Assembly (NCBI GenBank): GCA_013204025.1
Contig: JABMOW010000074.1
Coordinates: forward strand, 1-30,085
Source: Fidelibacterota bacterium
GTDB lineage: Bacteria; Fidelibacterota; Marinisomatia; SCGC-AAA003-L08; JACNLC01
Length of the DNA stretch: 30,085 nt
Reading direction: 5' to 3'
Shown: positions 5,892 to 26,908 of the stretch, one piece after another
Numbering within the stretch: position 1 is the first letter of the stretch
Layout of the letters: every line of letters begins with the position of its first letter
Notes under the pieces: model-generated
Database searches by the model: none
What the model saw: only the letters and a program-made list of their open reading frames with translations
Told to the model about the DNA's origin: nothing
Made by a program: the position numbers and the translations under genes

Positions 5892-6119
5892 TCATTTCTC
5901 GGTACTGATATTTTCAAGCAATTGTAATAATTCGTCTTCTCTCTCGTCGTATTCTTCTACGTCAATTTCGTCCATCTCGAACTTCAATTGCAAAGCCATA
6001 AGTCGTTCTTTAATGGCGCCTTCATCAGACATTTCTTTCTCGATTACCTCATTGATTTTATTTCCAATAAAAATAATTCCTTTTAAAGGCGCTAGAAGTA
6101 TGTCATCGATTAAAAACAC
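5892..6119 (-). CDS. gvpG: Gas vesicle protein GvpG-like
   Basis: A 75-aa protein (MFLIDDILLAPLKGIIFIGNKINEVIEKEM...EEYDEREDELLQLLENI) resembling GvpG in size and composition. Its position between gvpF/L genes fits. Confidence 0.65.
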   Translation of the reverse strand: MFLIDDILLAPLKGIIFIGNKINEVIEKEMSDEGAIKERLMALQLKFEMDEIDVEEYDEREDELLQLLENISTEK

Positions 6120-6120
6120 A

Positions 6121-6915
6121 TCAAATTCCTTTCGTGTAAATTGTCAGATTAACAAAATTATATGGAGGCAATGTTCCTACGTATTTGAAGGTCATGAGAT
6201 GACCATATTTTTCATCCAAATTGTTCACCGCTTTGTCAAATGCAGGTTCTGATGTGTTTTTAATAAGGAAGGCGGCATTGAGGATCATCATTTCTCCATA
6301 GTTATCGTTCACCTTGACATCAACCGCATGCGGATTTAATTCAGAGAGAATATTGTTTCGATATGCCTCTCTCTCTTGTTCAAGCGCTTCGGCAACCATT
6401 TCACCAATTTTCATACGTTGATAATGGGTTTTATCTGCTGGCAGGTTCATCAGCTTTTCTTTTAATGACCTGATATCATCATATTTTTCAATGATGCTTT
6501 CATAAATTGCGGCTTCATGGGCAAGTATTTTGAGTCCTAATTCTTTTTTTCCATCCATCGTAATGAGAAGATCGTTGAATTTTTTATAATCCTTTTCGAG
6601 GATTCTCAGAATCCCGGCATCATCGTTGTGTTCTGATATAGTTGAAAAACGGATCGGTAGAACAGTAAACCGCTTCATCACCTCTTCAAGTACCAATTGA
6701 TGGGCGATCATATGAGCTCGTCTGGCCTTATATTGTATGATTGGTGAATTACTTACAACTGCACTGATATCTTTGTAATGGATTCCATAGACCTTATCAG
6801 ATCGATCTCCGATACCAATAGGGCCAAAGTCAATCGAATCTGCGTGCCTTATGATGCCATATATATACTTGCCTTCTTTGGGCGTTTCTTGCATGTTGCT
6901 CATAGTTAACATCAA
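6121..6915 (-). CDS. gvpF: GvpF/GvpL-family gas vesicle assembly protein (paralog 3)
   Basis: The N-terminus reads KYIYGIIRHADSIDFGPIGIG....ISAVVS. The C-terminus ends ..KYVGTLPPYNFVNLTIY. Confidence 0.85.
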   Translation of the reverse strand: MMLTMSNMQETPKEGKYIYGIIRHADSIDFGPIGIGDRSDKVYGIHYKDISAVVSNSPIIQYKARRAHMIAHQLVLEEVMKRFTVLPIRFSTISEHNDDAGILRILEKDYKKFNDLLITMDGKKELGLKILAHEAAIYESIIEKYDDIRSLKEKLMNLPADKTHYQRMKIGEMVAEALEQEREAYRNNILSELNPHAVDVKVNDNYGEMMILNAAFLIKNTSEPAFDKAVNNLDEKYGHLMTFKYVGTLPPYNFVNLTIYTKGI

Positions 6916-7700: not shown

Positions 7701-8741
7701 TTACTCCATTATTTTTACTAAAATCAAATTTTCAATTACTTTTTCCTTCGCAAGTGAAATATTATCATCATTTGAAGATTGTCTTATCGCTGCTGAATAA
7801 TTAATCAATGTACGATAGGCCATATTGATCTTGTTAAAGCTTTCTTTATCGCCATTTCTAGGATGCGCATCGGGATGAAATAATTTCGCTTTTTCCAGAT
7901 ACGCCTTTTTAATTTCTGATTCCGTTGTTTCATCCCCGAGTCTAAGCTCTATTATTGCCTGTAACACAATTTCCAGATTTAGCTCATTAACTTCAAGGGT
8001 GTAAAAACTATAACACGGTAGAGGTCCGACTAATTTGAAGTTCAACAAACCCTTGTATTCTTCATCAAGTTGGTCAACTATCTTTTCAAACAAACCCTGA
8101 TTGTTTATATTGATGAGAAACGCAGAGTTGGTTACCATTTCGTCATTCATTACTTGATGCGTTTTGATATCGAGACTGCATTGTGATAATGAATCCAGAA
8201 TATTGAATTCAGTTTTTGTGTTTTTTTCTTTTAATTTTGACTGAACCAACATCCCTATTTTCATCTGGTCAGCCTGCGAAAGTATATCTATTTTTTTCTG
8301 TATTTCATCTCTTAAAGATACGATTTCGGGATGTCCAGAAATTTCTTTAAGAATCTCCGGGAAATTGTCCCATGTGGCTGCCAAGTCAATTTCTGTCAGA
8401 TATTCAGTTTTCTTCAGAGTTGTGATAATTAATTCATAGCCATTGGCAAGTACTTTAATAACCTCTTGCTTTGATCCAACAACCGTATAAAACTTCATAG
8501 GGATAAGAGTGGAGGATCCTTTTAACTGGAGTGCTTCAATCGTTTTTTGATGATGAATCAATAAATACCCAAGCGACTTCTTGTTCAACTGATCAAGTTG
8601 GATATCCTCCGTGTCAGAGACTATAGCCAATATATTTTTAAAGCTGATGGTATAAAGCTCTGAATTTTCCAATAATCTTAACATATCCGTGTTGTGATTT
8701 TCCAACATAATACCGTAGATATAAATTTTATTTGTACTCAT
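7701..8741 (-). CDS. gvpF: GvpF/GvpL-family protein fused to a C-terminal DnaJ-type J-domain (HPD motif)
   Basis: The N-terminal ~255 aa are GvpF/L-like (KIYIYGIM..., ..KLVGPLPCYSFYTLEV). The C-terminal ~70 aa read ..SEIKKAYLEKAKLFHPDAHPRNGDKESFNKINMAYRTLINY, which has the helix II-HPD-helix III arrangement of a J-domain. Confidence 0.85.
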   Translation of the reverse strand: MSTNKIYIYGIMLENHNTDMLRLLENSELYTISFKNILAIVSDTEDIQLDQLNKKSLGYLLIHHQKTIEALQLKGSSTLIPMKFYTVVGSKQEVIKVLANGYELIITTLKKTEYLTEIDLAATWDNFPEILKEISGHPEIVSLRDEIQKKIDILSQADQMKIGMLVQSKLKEKNTKTEFNILDSLSQCSLDIKTHQVMNDEMVTNSAFLININNQGLFEKIVDQLDEEYKGLLNFKLVGPLPCYSFYTLEVNELNLEIVLQAIIELRLGDETTESEIKKAYLEKAKLFHPDAHPRNGDKESFNKINMAYRTLINYSAAIRQSSNDDNISLAKEKVIENLILVKIME

Positions 8742-10909: not shown

Positions 10910-11830
10910 TTACGGTTTCTTTGGTTGATCTCCAAAAAGATACATACTCAATTTTTTCAATGCTTTCAGCCCTTTGATTTCTTCAGGAAACATGGGTACT
11001 TCAATCATATTCAAATTACTAAATATTTCACTAATCTGGCTCAAATATGGTAATTGGCTCGCCCTTCGCCTTTTACAAAAATCACAATCCTCAGAAACCA
11101 CTACATTGTTTACGATGATCTGTCTCGAAATGATTCCGGATTTACCAAGATCCGCTAATAGTCTGTCCGTTTCTATAATTGCCATCGCTTCGGGGATACA
11201 AACAGGGATAAATTCGCATTTGGAGTTATTTTTCAAGATGTTTTCGATCCTTTTAACCGTTTTTTTAAGGTTGAGTAAAAAGGTGTCTACCTTATCCTGC
11301 TTATATGAACCTGAAAAGCTGGTGACCATATAACGGTATTTCCATCTCATCTTGGCGGCAACTTTTATCCATGCATCCAATAATTTTGGAGATGAAATCA
11401 GTCGCAATGCGTGACCAGTGGGTGCGGTATCCACAACATATTTATCATACTCGCCTTCTTCAATAAAATCAATGATGGTTTTAAAACTCATCACCTCATC
11501 AATGCCGGGTATCGATAAGGTCAGCATCTCGTCGATGTCCTCATTGTCAAGATTTGTAGAAGTTTCCAGAAGTTTTTTAAGCTCGTTATGGTGTGCTGTT
11601 TTGAATACCGAAAGTGCCTCGTCAGCAACCACTTCTATAGCCGACAGGTTGTCTACACCATCAACCTTTACCACATTAAAACCAATTTGTTGTTCGAGAC
11701 AATCCGACACAGAATGAGCCGGATCGGTGGAGATGAGAAGCGTTCTGTGATTTTCAGACAACGCCAGCGCTGTGGTTAAAGCACAACTGGTTTTTCCAAC
11801 GCCACCCTTTCCTCCGAAAATGATGAGCTT
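10910..11830 (-). CDS. Get3/ArsA-family P-loop ATPase with a CxxC motif; the N-terminus and start codon are unresolved
   Basis: The ORF carries the ArsA/Get3 signature VVDTAPTGHALRL and a CDFC (CxxC) motif. The tracked ATG (11761) lies downstream of the P-loop. The frame stays open upstream to the TAG at 11882-11884 and encodes KLIIFGGKGGVGKTSCALTTALALSENHRT, but contains no ATG, GTG or TTG. The 5' end given here is therefore approximate. Confidence 0.8.
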   Translation of the reverse strand, partial: KLIIFGGKGGVGKTSCALTTALALSENHRTLLISTDPAHSVSDCLEQQIGFNVVKVDGVDNLSAIEVVADEALSVFKTAHHNELKKLLETSTNLDNEDIDEMLTLSIPGIDEVMSFKTIIDFIEEGEYDKYVVDTAPTGHALRLISSPKLLDAWIKVAAKMRWKYRYMVTSFSGSYKQDKVDTFLLNLKKTVKRIENILKNNSKCEFIPVCIPEAMAIIETDRLLADLGKSGIISRQIIVNNVVVSEDCDFCKRRRASQLPYLSQISEIFSNLNMIEVPMFPEEIKGLKALKKLSMYLFGDQPKKP

Positions 11831-11868
11831 TAGATCGTCGTTTCCTAATCCGGTAAGGGTCGTGTTTT

Positions 11869-12396
11869 TTATTTTGCTATCCTAATTTCAAGGATTCCAT
11901 TATTAAATTTGTGATTTAGGTTTTTACTTACGACTTTTACCGGAAGAAGCAGCTCTTTGCGGTATGTCCTATTATTGCTGACCGCCGAAATTTCAAGTAT
12001 ATCTTCTTTTAGGTCGATTTTAAGGTCAACTTCCTCTATTCCCGGCATTTCAGCAATGATGACGATCTCATTCTTTTCATCAAATATGTCGGTTATCGGC
12101 TCCCGTTCTTCATCCACTCTTGGTCCTTCGGGTGTTTTTTTTATGTTTCCGAAAGTCTCAACTTGTGGTTCACCTCCAACTGCCGTGTTGACGGTAAAGC
12201 CATAAATGCCTTTCATGCCTTTTTTGATATGATCAAAATTAATCTCACCTTCCTTGCTAATTCCCCCCTTTTCCTCGAGCTTCCCAGCAAGGTCAACTAA
12301 TTTTTCGATGCCTTTGAACAGACCGCCAAGTCCGAAAAGATCAGAATTGGCTTCGCCCTTTTTTTCTTTATTTTTTTCGTTTTCCATTTTAAACAT
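11869..12396 (-). CDS. gvpH: Hsp20/alpha-crystallin-domain protein (GvpH-like)
   Basis: The C-terminal alpha-crystallin domain reads ..ITDIFDEKNEIVIIAEMPGIEEVDLKIDLKEDILEISAV...YRKELLLPVKV....FNNGILEIRIAK. The N-terminus is Gly/Lys-rich. Confidence 0.75.
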   Translation of the reverse strand: MFKMENEKNKEKKGEANSDLFGLGGLFKGIEKLVDLAGKLEEKGGISKEGEINFDHIKKGMKGIYGFTVNTAVGGEPQVETFGNIKKTPEGPRVDEEREPITDIFDEKNEIVIIAEMPGIEEVDLKIDLKEDILEISAVSNNRTYRKELLLPVKVVSKNLNHKFNNGILEIRIAK

Positions 12397-14071: not shown

Positions 14072-14260
14072 TTACATAAATTCTTGGTTGGACAATTGTT
14101 CAACTGTGCTTTTCCAGATGTCCCTTGCCTCTTCAATTTCTTTTGTTATCTGTTCCTTTGCAAGTAAATAAGCTTTTTTCTTGGCTTTAAACCGGATTAA
14201 TGCTTCTTGTCTTTTCAGTAAATTTTTCCTGATATTATTTACGGCATTATTCAATGTCAA
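14072..14260 (-). CDS. Hypothetical small helical protein (62 aa), translationally coupled to the zinc-finger gene
   Basis: There is a 4-nt ATGA overlap with the upstream ORF. The protein is basic and helical. No motif was recognised. Confidence 0.45.
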   Translation of the reverse strand: MTLNNAVNNIRKNLLKRQEALIRFKAKKKAYLLAKEQITKEIEEARDIWKSTVEQLSNQEFM

Positions 14261-14574
14261 TTACCTTTATATCCCTTACCACTACAACGTGTACAGGGCA
14301 AGCCATCGCTCTCTTTTCCATTTCCTTTGCATTTCGTACATTTTGTATTGCTCTCACAATTATTGCTCCCTTTCCCCCGACAAACTATGCACGGAACCCT
14401 GGCTCCAAGCGGGTTTCTGCCTGTACCCAAACAAAAAACGCATGTAACTGTCGACTCCCCTGCTTCAACCTGTCTTGTACCATCACAAACCAGACAAACT
14501 GACATCGGCGACAGTAAATCGAAAGGGTCTTTTCCGGTTCCACTACAATATGCGCATTTGATTACTTTTTTCAT
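14257..14574 (-). CDS. Stand-alone DnaJ-type cysteine-rich zinc-finger protein (6x CxxCxGxG)
   Basis: Six repeats are present: CAYCSGTG, CLVCDGTR, CVFCLGTG, CIVCRGKG, CTKCKGNG and CTRCSGKG. The protein has no J-domain and no other domain. Confidence 0.8.
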   Translation of the reverse strand: MKKVIKCAYCSGTGKDPFDLLSPMSVCLVCDGTRQVEAGESTVTCVFCLGTGRNPLGARVPCIVCRGKGSNNCESNTKCTKCKGNGKESDGLPCTRCSGKGYKGN

Positions 14575-22874: not shown

Positions 22875-23011
22875 TACAAATTAAATTCCCCATTTCTAAC
22901 TAAAATGCTTTTTATCTGTGGATAGTCAAAGCGATTGGACGTCTTCGACCTAAAAGTTGTGTTGTGTATCCATTGAAACATCGATCTAGCCAAGCGAGTC
23001 TGAAGTAAAAG

Positions 23012-23185
23012 AATTCAATTTACAGATATCTCTAATAGTCCGTACATGGTCTTTTGTAATGGGTTATTTTTGAATTTTTTGATGTAGTCCGCTGCTCCTA
23101 ACACTTTTCTAATTTGTCTTTCCATCAATAGTGCATCAGCAGGGTAATCTTCGAGAATTAAAATATGTATTATTTTTTCCATTGA
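23012..23185 (-). pseudogene. Orphan N-terminal fragment of a receiver (REC) domain (~57 aa)
   Basis: Translation of an unlisted short ORF gives MEKIIHILILEDYPADALLMERQIRKVLG.., which is the beta1-alpha1 region of a REC domain. It lacks the rest of the domain. It lies immediately downstream of repeat copy 1. Confidence 0.4.
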
Positions 23186-23221
23186 CCTTTATAATTAAAA
23201 TCTGTCATTAGACTCTCACAA

Positions 23222-23565
23222 GGTATCTTTGAAAATATGAGTTGAATTTTGAATCACTGACTCCAGAAATAACTCTGAAAAGTGTGTAATTTCAATATCC
23301 ACTCCAAGTAAAAAATACATAGACAGGTGGTTGCCAACAAACTCATATTGAAGGTCATTTTCATGTGGCTTTAACAAATTTCTGATATTTGTCCAATAAA
23401 AAATGATAGCAGGAGTTGGATACTCTTTCGTATAACTCCTGTATTTACAACGCTTTCAACGATAATAATATACTAGAGTATGTACTTTGAATAATTTCTT
23501 GTGTACTTTTACGTAATTGTTTTTCGATGTTCCGTCGAGCGAGAAGTGTACTTATAAAAACTGGG
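23222..23565. repeat. ~345-bp diverged direct repeat, copy 1 (~80% identity to 27607-27950); part of it encodes a degenerate HATPase_c N-box/G1-region fragment on the minus strand
   Basis: Direct by-eye alignment. The minus-strand translation ..NLLKPHENDLQYEFVGNHLSMYFLLGVDIEITHFSELFLESVIQNSTHIFKDTL* is conserved with copy 2 at the protein level. Confidence 0.7.
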
Positions 23566-23728
23566 GGTTGGGGTTTGTGTTAAAAAGTACGTTTAATATG
23601 TTGGGAATACATGCTTCTCGTTCCACAAAGATTTGGCCGTCCACAACATCTCCACAATAGAAAGCCACTGTGAATCCAAAATTTTGAAGTCGATTTTCAA
23701 TCTGAATATGCAAAATTCAGATGCGAAA

Positions 23729-26700
23729 TTATATGGGAATCCGTACAAAAAATGAATTGCCTTGAGAATTATTGGGCTCGACACCTACATCAGCGTGGTG
23801 GGCATCGGCTATTTTTTTCACGATTGCCAGACCAAGGCCCCCGCCTCCCTTTGACAATCCCTCAAGCTGAATTTTTCTTTTAAATACTTTATCCCTGAAT
23901 TTCTCTTCAATCGTTTGTCCAAGATCGTTCACCCGAATAGTGATGTGAGTACTAGATTTTTCTGCGATCAAAGTAATTGATTTCGCACTGCCACCATATT
24001 TAATGGCATTGCTGATGTAATTATCGAAAATTTCAGATATAATAGGATTAGCCCGGATTTCGATCTTTTCCTGAATCTGATTGTCTACAATAATTTGTTT
24101 TTATTGTAAAGTTCTTTTAAACCGTGAAAGGACCTCATGCACCATCAAGGATACATCAAGGTTTGTCAGCTCTATTTGATCCCCCACTTCGATTTTAGCC
24201 AGATTTGTGACATTGGTAATGATATGAAGGGATTGATCAATAGAGTCTTTCATGTATAACAATTCTTCGATATCAGAATGTGCATGCACAATCATTTCAG
24301 CAAAACCTTGAGCAGTTCCGATAGGATTTCTTAAATCATGGGTGATGATATCCAATAATAAATTCTTTAAATCATTTGATTTTTTCAACTCGTTTGTTCG
24401 CTGTAATACGATTTGTTCAAGTCGCTGATTCCGTCGCCGGATGTTGGTTAGTCTTCGACTAATTATATAAAAGAGAGAACTAAATACAAGTAGCAATCCG
24501 AAGACTCGAAATAATGCTGTCTGCCAGAATGGGGGCTTTATAAATATATTTATTCTGGCACCGGTATCATTCCATATACCGTCGTTATTAGAACCTGTTA
24601 CTTGAAATGTATAAGCACCGGGGTGAAGATTCATATATTTTGCAACGCGGCTGTTGCCTGCATTGACCCAATCTTTATCATACCCGACCAGGATATATCT
24701 ATATTTATTTTTTTCGGGAATTGAAAAATTCAGTGCAGAATAATGAATAGAAAATGCATTTTGTTGATATGTTAAATCAATCTTATCCAAATTTGTTATT
24801 ACATGGGGCAGAGGGGAATCAGAGCCTGGTTTCACACGCTCGTTGAAGATATAAAAATCTGTTAAAACGATTTTTGGTACAAATGGATTGATGTTGATTT
24901 CAGACGGTCTGAATGCATTGAATCCGTTGATACCACCAAAGTACATGACTCCTGATTTTGTTTTATATGCTGCACCCTGATTGAATTCATTACTTTGAAG
25001 TCCATCCCGATAATCAAAATTATGAAAGCTCAATTTATCAGGATCAAATTTTGACAAACCTGAATTAGTACTTAGCCATAGATTGTCTTCTGCGTCAGCC
25101 AGGATACCATAGACAACATTACTAGCCAGCCCATCATTAGTGGTAAAATATTTTTTCTTTTTTGATTCCAAATCATATTGAACGAGACCGTAACCGTGGG
25201 TACCGATCCATAATTTCCCCCGTGCGTCATTGTGAATCGTATATATATCTATCTGATTATCAAGTGGTAGATACCTGATAAAATGCTCAGATTCATAATC
25301 AAAACGGTTTATTTCGCCACCACTTGTACCAATCCAGAGTTCCCCGGAATTATCGCAATATATTGTACTAATATAATCACCACTTATACTATTTGTGTCG
25401 CTTGGGGAATATGTATAGTTATAGAAAGTATCCTTTATTGGATCGTATTTACTTAATCCCCCTCCATAGGATCCGAACCACATCGTTCCTGCCGAGTCGC
25501 GACAAATGGAAAAAACTCCGTCCAGCCCGAATGTTGATGAATCAGTCTCAACCATTTTGAAATGCCTGAACTCATCCAACTGGGGGTTATACAAGTCGAC
25601 ACCTTCGCCGAATCCTATCCATAAATTGCCGTTCAAGTCTTCACCAATAGCACCAATGCTGTTACTGGCAATACTGTTATTGTTATCAGGAATGTTCATC
25701 ATGTATGTAAAACTGTTGTTAGCTGGATCATATTTATTAACACCACCACCATCAGTCCCAATCAGGATTGCCCCGGAATTATCTTCAAAAATGTCATAGA
25801 TTGAATTATTATTCAACTGGTTTGAACCATTTGGAAAATAGAAGTGGTGGGGAAATTTGCGTTTTCCCGGATCATATTTATTCAATCCGCCAGAGCCGGT
25901 ACCGACCCAGATTACTCCAGCATTATCCTGATATATCGCGGGGATATAATTATCATTTATGGTGTTTGGATGTTCAGGATCATTTACCAAACGGGTAATT
26001 GTTCCGTTTCCAATATCAAGTCTATTTAGTCCATTATAGCTTCCAAACCACAAATTATTTGCGTTGTCCTCAAATATCGAAATTATTCCATTACCTGCCG
26101 TACTTTCAGTGTGTGGCAGGTCTTGCTGGTAAATTATCCTGTCGCCCGTTTTCGTATCCAGTTTTACCAGCCCTGAATTAGTGCCCAGCCAAAGAATCCC
26201 GCTGTCATCTACCATAAAAGTGTTTATTTCCGTATCAATCGAATCAATATTATTATTGATATTCAAATTATAATTAGTGAATTGACCTAATTCAGGATCA
26301 AAGCGACTCAGTCCATCATAAGTACAGATCCAGAGAAAACCATCAGCGCTTTCCGCTATTTTGAAAATATAATAAATCCAGCTGTCTATTGAATCACGGT
26401 TCGATCGTGCATAATGTTCAAATTGGTTTGTGTTGTGAATAAATTTATTAAGTCCTTCAGATGAACCAATCCAGATTGTGCCATCAGCACTCTCAATAAT
26501 TGAATAAATATAATTGTCGCTCAAACTAGTTGAATCACCGGGGGTATACCGAAAGTTTGTGAAACGTTCAAGGCCAGGATCATAAACAGCAATACCAGCA
26601 CCTTCAGTGCCAATCCACAATCTACCCTGACTGTCTTCGAAAATCGTGTTCACATAATTGGCCGAGATAGTGGTTGAATCTGCAGGATCGTGACGGAATA

Positions 26701-26908
26701 TTTTAATATTGTATCCGTCATACCGATTCAATCCGTCTTGGGTACCAATCCATAGGAAGCCATTGCTGTCCTGAATGATACAATTTACGGTGCTTTGGGA
26801 CAACCCATCCTTGATGGTAATGTGTTCAAATTCTGCCGATAGACCATTGTCAGCCGATAAAACCGACAGAATGATAAGGCTGCTGGTTAAGTATTTAATC
26901 TTTGTCAT
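23729..26908 (-). pseudogene. Beta-propeller (two-component-regulator propeller / Y_Y_Y) sensor histidine kinase, interrupted by an in-frame TAA (24101-24103) between HisKA and HATPase_c
   Basis: The 935-aa ORF has a signal peptide, WxGT-type propeller repeats, a TM segment (FGLLLVFSSLFYIISRRL) and an H-box (ITHDLRNPIGTA). After the TAA the same frame continues as KQIIVDNQIQEKIEIRANPIISEIFDNYISNAIKYGGSAKSITLIAEKSSTHITIRVNDLGQ..GGGGLGLAIVKKIADAHHADVGVEP... These are the N, G1 and G2 boxes. 24101 and 23729 are congruent mod 3. Confidence 0.75.

Follow-up and report, generated by a model that had tools for sequence, protein, structure and literature searches.

An ACG codon at the conserved start position of a Get3/ArsA gene in a bacterial gas-vesicle cluster

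Homologues of arsA were reported in 2010 beside hsp20 in the gvpN/L/F/J/K clusters of Bacteroidetes and Chlorobi, as exemplified by Polaribacter irgensii and Pelodictyon luteolum (Castillo & Saier, PMC2963123). The same adjacency is found in contig JABMOW010000074.1 of assembly GCA_013204025.1, analysed here over its positions 1 to 30,085 (the window), where the gene of a Get3/ArsA-type ATPase, called ArsA in the following, stands directly behind an Hsp20 gene in a gas-vesicle (gvp) cluster. The gvp-linked ArsA proteins of the 2010 study have two domains and about 600 amino acids (aa), whereas the family represented in the window is single-domain, 311–323 aa long and endowed with a Get3-like CxxC, and the window copy has ACG at its start position. 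A Get3/ArsA ATPase is paired with an Hsp20-fold domain also in Get3d, in which an alpha-crystallin domain is fused to the C-terminus of Get3 (PMC10248533; Pfam PF17886 ArsA_HSP20). By contrast with this covalent, C-terminal arrangement, all loci examined here have Hsp20 as a gene of its own, located upstream.

In Escherichia coli, initiation at AUA, AUC, AUU and CUG amounts to 1–2% of that at AUG and initiation at the remaining codons, ACG included, to 0.1–1%, and GFP started from ACG carried an N-terminal Met (bioRxiv 10.1101/063800). The candidate codon in the window is likewise one base from AUG, the NCBI annotation uses an ATA in the same gene and a sister lineage has ATA, but ACG falls outside the four better near-cognate codons of E. 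coli. The host is probably a Bacteroidota-like organism initiating without Shine-Dalgarno (SD) sequences, and the E. coli figures may not be its own. Initiation in Bacteroidetes is SD-independent and favoured by A at −3, −6, −12 and −13 (PMC6847099), and the ribosomes of Bacteroidia disregard the SD (PMC6847099, PMC7797042). Gene pairs that are translationally coupled by termination-reinitiation mostly have overlaps of −4 or −1 and a canonical start (PMC6728339, PMC10666635); the process needs an overlap or a very short distance, and the coupled pairs often encode interacting proteins (PMC10666635). Like such pairs, Hsp20 and ArsA are co-directional and lie 3–5 nucleotides (nt) apart in about 143 loci, and the ATAA overlap in the window is analogous to ATGA; coupling of the two genes is putative.

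The start position of the ArsA gene

Junction features are given on the minus strand of the window. From the codon after the in-frame TAG at 11884–11882 the ArsA frame reads DSKIKNTTLTGLGNDDLKLIIFGGKGGVGKT, and in-frame ATG, GTG and TTG codons are all absent between that TAG and the P-loop at 11815–11789, which confirms what the original prediction had stated. Equally confirmed was the geometry of the junction, GCAAAATAAAAAACACG: Hsp20 ends with TAA at 11871–11869, the ArsA codons begin at 11872, 11869 and so on, one base back from those of Hsp20 (frame −1), and one A added to the A4 run would join both frames. The P-loop does lie upstream of position 11761, although the codon there, described as the only ATG, is a TTG, and other start-type codons exist, such as the GTG chosen by the Joint Genome Institute (JGI). 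A stretch of 40 codons without a canonical start has a chance of about 0.15 at the base composition of the window and is not unusual alone. The meaningful anomaly is that the conserved domain begins before the first canonical start.

The key fact absent from the original prediction is the presence of ACG at the position homologous to the ATG of the family. A protein search returned thousands of homologues, and the best 120 were analysed. They are 76–86% identical to the ArsA of the window, 308–336 aa long and all stand-alone, and those with a named source come from metagenome-assembled genomes (MAGs) of Bacteroidales, Bacteroidota, Bacteroidia, Draconibacterium or Mariniphaga. All except two begin MALxGLxNxDLKLIIFGGKGGVGKT (118 of 120), with the Met exactly 16 residues ahead of GGKGGVGKT, where the window reads TTLTGLGNDDLKLIIFGGKGGVGKT; an MTLTGL variant is seen among the relatives, and the N-terminus in the window is otherwise normal. 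In four fetched loci the Hsp20 stop lies 5 nt ahead of the ArsA ATG, and the DNA of the junction aligns without a gap, AGG ATA AAA AAA TAA / ATGTC / ATG GCA CTT in the relatives and AGG ATA GCA AAA TAA / AAAAC / ACG ACC CTT in the window. The window codons of the ArsA N-terminus preserve the conserved residues and differ synonymously from those of the relatives. An alignment of homologous loci had been named in advance as a check, and its outcome is that the relatives carry a separate, ATG-initiated ArsA.

The codon 16 positions ahead of the P-loop and the upstream stop were scored for each locus in species-representative genomes (80 loci) and metagenome contigs (80 loci), samples in which loci and protein sets overlap. 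ATG occupies the homologous start position in 200 of the 206 recovered homologues (118/120 proteins, 80/83 loci of the genome scan and 76/79 loci of the metagenome scan). ACG was found only in the window and in its copy L005, and ATA in one lineage (L013, L097, L098 and L099). Between Hsp20 stop and ArsA start, 96 loci have a spacer of 5 nt, 41 one of 4 nt, six one of 3 nt and a few one of 7–12 nt; the 143 loci with spacers of 3–5 nt yield all three frame relations, so that the frame relation is not conserved. Throughout, the family is a stand-alone ArsA of 311–323 aa after an Hsp20 stop in about 160 gas-vesicle loci, from MAGs of Bacteroidales, Prolixibacteraceae, Lentimicrobiaceae and Chlorobiaceae, and in most related loci the Hsp20 gene is immediately 5' of ArsA. 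In the genome and metagenome scans the aa identity of relatives stayed at or below about 85%, and no ATG-bearing sister strain was found.

Taken together, the gene is very probably a stand-alone Get3/ArsA gene of a gvp cluster whose ancestral ATG became ACG by one T-to-C transition, with no indel, fusion or conserved frame relation involved. As an observation the original prediction is largely correct, but the cause proposed here is simple, one substituted base in the initiation codon of an ordinary gene that stands by itself.

The exact Hsp20 and GvpA/J proteins of the window were found on one extra record only, the Logan contig L005 (assembly of SRR28106102), which is 100% identical to the window across 3342 bp, the ACG and the A4 and A6 runs included. 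This agreement excludes an assembler artefact. An exact look-up of the JGI product P0008 returned no second contig. P0008 itself is a 266-aa protein with a downstream GTG as its start, called on a scaffold version of 30,208 bp; the call implies that the ATG is absent from the JGI scaffold too. The NCBI annotation of the window contig has a 320-aa ArsA (NQU67392.1, P0121; MKNTTLTGLG…) with the ATA at 11872–11870 as its first residue; the missing start is already handled by a non-canonical codon in the public record.

The ATA lineage is an observation in its own right. It has ATA in the homologous start position, 5 nt behind the TAA of Hsp20 and with no canonical in-frame start upstream (2994–2996 in L013, 875–877 in L097, 1494–1496 in both L098 and L099). 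The lineage consists of three JGI metagenome contigs and one MAG, which are 99.92–100% identical, 0–1 single-nucleotide polymorphism or indel apart, and have the open reading frame (ORF) intact; a within-lineage selection test is precluded by this near-identity. Its occurrence in four assemblies implies that a near-cognate codon at the ArsA start persists in nature.

A deviant Walker A motif GKGGVGKT, TDPAHS and the switch II motif DTAPTGH are markers of the Get3/ArsA family. The product of the window gene has the P-loop GGKGGVGKT at aa 17–25 (11815–11789), TDPAHS at aa 46–51 (11728–11711), DTAPTGH at aa 145–151 (11431–11411) and CDFC at aa 260–263 (11086–11075). It matches PF02374 (ArsA_ATPase) over its full length (E = 7e-81, profile positions 2–303 of 305) and TIGR00345 (GET3_arsA_TRC40) with 260 bits against a cut-off of 135 bits, and the nearest solved structures are the Get3-type chains 5zme, 3ug6 and 3zq6. 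The CDFC is a CxxC of the Get3 type, with a predicted zinc site at the dimer interface, and the protein has one domain and about 320 aa. The arsenical pump protein ArsA proper, a two-domain protein of about 580 aa, is not what is encoded here: the score against its equivalog model TIGR04291 is 123 bits, where 650 are required, and the product has a single domain. By its profile matches and nearest structures it is classified as a single-domain Get3/TRC40-type ATPase and not as an arsenite pump subunit. The upstream product exceeds the curated cut-off of Pfam HSP20 (E = 2.7e-5) and falls slightly below the 140-bit cut-off of the NCBIfam Hsp20 model (131 bits, E = 2.6e-38); its matches to ArsA_HSP20 (PF17886, E = 0.014) and to the GvpH Pfam are both sub-threshold. 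Coordinates are collected in Table 1.

Table 1. Features of the Hsp20–ArsA junction and adjoining genes in the window
Feature	Position	Strand	Remarks
GvpN-type AAA+	14020-13076	minus	
Small ORF	13063-12749	minus	
GvpA/J	12731-12432	minus	
Hsp20/GvpH-like small heat-shock gene	12396-11869	minus	175 aa, ATG start, TAA stop 11871-11869
In-frame TAG closing the ArsA frame upstream	11884-11882	minus	Frame reading
In-frame ATA	11872-11870	minus	Three codons 5' of ACG; overlaps Hsp20 stop as ATAA; NCBI-annotated start
5-nt spacer AAAAC	11864-11868	minus	Between Hsp20 stop and ancestral ArsA start position
ACG codon at the family's conserved ATG position	11863-11861	minus	T-to-C at 11862; gapless DNA alignment
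TTG, first canonical in-frame start-type codon	11761-11759	minus	3' of P-loop; product from here without nucleotide-binding loop
Get3/ArsA ATPase gene, stand-alone	11863-10910	minus	317 codons from ACG, 320 from ATA; stop TAA 10912-10910
Cdc48-type double AAA+ ATPase	10906-8753	minus	3 nt past ArsA stop; third of conserved Hsp20-ArsA-Cdc48 run

The ArsA ORF of the window is free of stops and frameshifts and has no surplus of changes at conserved columns. At the columns that are invariant across 138 other unique sequences it has one deviation, a normal value, as at least one deviation is seen in 16 of 139 sequences. The ratio of non-synonymous to synonymous substitution rates (dN/dS) against the nearest relatives is 0.10–0.12, and the terminal branch ranks 32nd of 139 by length. 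Relative-rate counts with a Chlorobium outgroup were 13:13, 10:18, 7:17, 13:13 and 11:10 and reveal no acceleration; this set leaves out the comparisons of L087 or L001 that had L088 or L010 for an outgroup, which are invalid because the latter two sequences are nearer to the ingroup. As far as these tests tell, the ORF appears free of decay.

Possible near-cognate initiation and its alternatives

We consider the chances even that production of ArsA continues, at a lowered level, from a near-cognate codon. The initiator tRNA would pair with the ACG at the ancestral position or with the ATA at 11872–11870, and ribosomes ending on Hsp20, 0–5 nt away, may assist through termination-reinitiation coupling. 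The product would be an ArsA of 317 or 320 aa with Met first, and its predicted N-terminal peptide is M(K)NTTLTGLGNDDLK or MTLTGLGNDDLK. The A-rich stretch, as C-terminus and stop of Hsp20, very probably doubles as an SD-less initiation region of the sort typical of Bacteroidota-like genes. Both codons are in place, the ACG at the start of the family and the ATA three codons upstream, and a canonical alternative that preserves the domain is lacking; the distance from the Hsp20 stop is 5 nt for the ACG, and for the ATA there is a 2-nt overlap. Relative to the ACG, A is present at −3, −6 and −12, and the sequences ahead of genes in the window are for the most part rich in A and poor in SD-like motifs. 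An AGGA that lies 7 nt upstream of the ATA at 11872 was given no weight as an SD, being part of the conserved Arg-Ile codons of Hsp20 and reading AGAA in the ATA lineage. We know of no bacterial system for C-to-U editing of ACG to AUG such as occurs in plant organelles. The original prediction had listed a non-canonical start as the last of three possibilities, and this came closest, but the codons proposed, ATC or ATT at the KLII position, are not the candidates, which are ACG 11863–11861 and ATA 11872–11870.

A number of observations weigh against expression from such a codon. Near-cognate initiation does not exceed about 1–2% of AUG in E. coli, and SD-less Bacteroidota may depend on AUG more strongly. 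Translation of ArsA from ACG or ATA is putative, and so is reinitiation at either codon after the Hsp20 stop, which none of the cited papers describes. At ArsA, non-ATG starts show no significant excess (2/126) over those at Cdc48 or GvpA/J (0/223), whose N-termini in the same loci move by 1–3 codons with an ATG always close by. L005 and the window may come from one set of reads, in which case L005 would not be independent sequencing. An intact ORF with normal rates agrees equally with function and with a start that was lost only very recently. Finally, the window has a second point lesion in a hybrid sensor kinase (23729–26908, minus strand), which is split by an in-frame TAA at 24101–24103 into a Reg_prop/Y_Y_Y/HisKA part (24104–26908) and 123 same-frame codons with HATPase_c (Pfam E = 3.9e-16), and which is probably a nonsense-mutated pseudogene. 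Inactivating substitutions thus occur in this genome, which raises the prior of a null allele at ArsA.

Such a null allele, in which the T-to-C change ended initiation and ArsA is no longer made, being either a very young pseudogene or dispensable, is the main rival and a real possibility, albeit one we do not favour. The low rank of ACG in E. coli (bioRxiv 10.1101/063800), the want of help from an SD in Bacteroidota (PMC6847099) and the failure of the JGI caller to give a full-length gene all agree with it, as do the kinase interrupted between HisKA and HATPase_c and the ORF-poor stretch of about 850 bp beside it. However, the ORF is without lesions and its rate without acceleration, the neighbouring gvp genes are all intact and of family-typical length, and the parallel ATA lineage retains an intact ORF in four assemblies, although a recent event would still fit all of this. 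Quite improbable, by comparison, is an error of consensus or sequencing, or a minor-allele artefact, by which the true codon would be ATG and the C at 11862 wrong. ACG is indeed confined to one lineage and both records may share one read set, but two assemblers gave identical sequence over the 3342 bp, the JGI call also implies that there is no ATG, consensus substitution errors are rare and the chance of one striking 11862 is very small, and the ATA lineage shows real start-codon variants in the family.

Two of the possibilities raised in the original prediction concerned a fusion of Hsp20 with ArsA, and neither held. A homopolymer error masking a natural fusion is contradicted by the gapless alignment to two-gene loci with an identical 5-nt spacer and by the same A-run lengths in L005. 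No fusion was found in about 162 loci, where the ArsA frame is open for at most 34 codons upstream, or among the best 120 proteins, none longer than 336 aa. The other possibility was programmed −1 slippage. An A AAA directly before a stop codon is shift-prone in principle (a 'shifty stop'), and a −1 slip of tRNA-Lys on A-AAA beside the TAA, or transcriptional slippage on the A-run, would give some Hsp20-ArsA fusion through the junction cassette GCAAAATAAAAAAC, with the −1 frame open into ArsA. The A-run, however, is made of the C-terminal Lys codons and the stop of Hsp20 (…EIRIKK-stop in the relatives, a conserved I-K-K-stop, and GCA AAA TAA in the zero frame of the window), and most relatives have a longer run (A7) than the window and yet their own ATG. 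The spacer may be 3, 4 or 5 nt long, and a canonical X XXY YYZ heptamer is absent from the zero frame, leaving only a single-tRNA slip beside the stop conceivable. A stimulatory RNA structure was not detected in the 101 nt from the junction on (minimum free energy −20.8 against a shuffle mean of −18.0 kcal/mol, z = −1.07), as 30 of 200 shuffles fold as well as the native sequence. Known Get3-crystallin fusions moreover have the opposite domain order (PMC10248533). Recoding is thus not supported by the sequence, trace-level slippage aside, and we regard it as very improbable. The functional link between Hsp20 and Get3/ArsA that the original prediction called plausible is borne out, as the two genes form a conserved adjacent pair in gvp clusters; the known fusion, Get3d, has its domains in the reverse of the order proposed there.

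Hardly more credible is initiation at the ATC or ATT of KLII (11824–11819), or at a TTG or GTG downstream, to give an N-terminally shortened protein. AUC and AUU do belong to the better near-cognates of E. coli (bioRxiv 10.1101/063800). A start at KLII would, however, remove the conserved N-terminal peptide xLxGLxNxDLKL and part of strand beta-1, and with them the first residues of the domain, whose Pfam match begins at the K of KLIIF; a start at TTG or GTG would lose the P-loop entirely. Ahead of these positions the window retains the conserved residues, while its codons differ synonymously from those of the relatives.

Between start-codon change with near-cognate expression, taken as one statement, and its negation we see the balance as level. 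A more far-reaching version is that in SD-less gvp operons of the Bacteroidota type ArsA is mainly translated by ribosomes just off Hsp20, relaxing the need for AUG, and that near-cognate starts are then tolerated and maintained as functional, expression-lowering variants, ACG here and ATA in L013 and L097–L099; this we offer tentatively, as a joint proposal that is rather unlikely to hold in full.

The surrounding gas-vesicle cluster

ArsA lies in a large gvp cluster on the minus strand (Table 1), and the order Hsp20-ArsA-Cdc48 is also found in L001, L002 and L004. The three genes form a run with spacers of 5 nt and 3 nt; in the related locus L003 the otherwise tight junction of ArsA and Cdc48 is broken by an inserted small gene at 1470–1766 (23S_rRNA_IVP / bAvd-like Pfam hits). 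The cluster has at least five GvpF/L paralogues, one of which is fused to a J domain, and chaperone-type parts are abundant in it: this GvpF/L has its DnaJ (J) domain at the C-terminus (7701–8741, minus strand), and an ORF of 105 aa (14257–14574, minus strand) has sub-threshold matches to the DnaJ-type CXXCXGXG zinc-finger repeat. Of two gvp ORFs on the minus strand listed with a TTG start, that at 6915 reads TTG ATG TTA and probably has its true start at the ATG at 6912; the other, of 107 aa, has its TTG at 5917–5915.

The NCBI taxon of the contig, whose organism is known from metagenome contigs only, is Candidatus Marinimicrobia, whereas all taxon-named close homologues of ArsA (64–86% identity) and all syntenic gvp loci recovered belong to MAGs of Bacteroidales, Prolixibacteraceae, Lentimicrobiaceae or Chlorobiaceae. 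The mismatch could result from mis-binning or from lateral transfer of the gvp cluster. Scans of the window for Rfam families and tRNA genes gave no hits. The stretch of about 850 bp adjoining the split sensor kinase (22875–23728) contains only short ORFs, and that at 23015–23182 (MEKIIHILILEDYPADALLMERQIRKVL…), which resembles the N-terminal stub of a response-regulator receiver and has no Pfam hit, may be a gene remnant.

Meaning of the start-codon change

The finding bears mainly on annotation. A change of the start codon explains why gene callers disagree on this ArsA, giving 266 aa (JGI) or 320 aa (NCBI), and what looked like a slippery fusion junction is, on this explanation, the normal passage from Hsp20 stop to ArsA start in which the start codon has mutated. 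Should the near-cognate codon indeed serve as a start, this gene would exemplify natural initiation at ACG or ATA in a bacterium without SD sequences, and would hint at a coupled synthesis of Hsp20 and Get3/ArsA for the assembly of gas vesicles.

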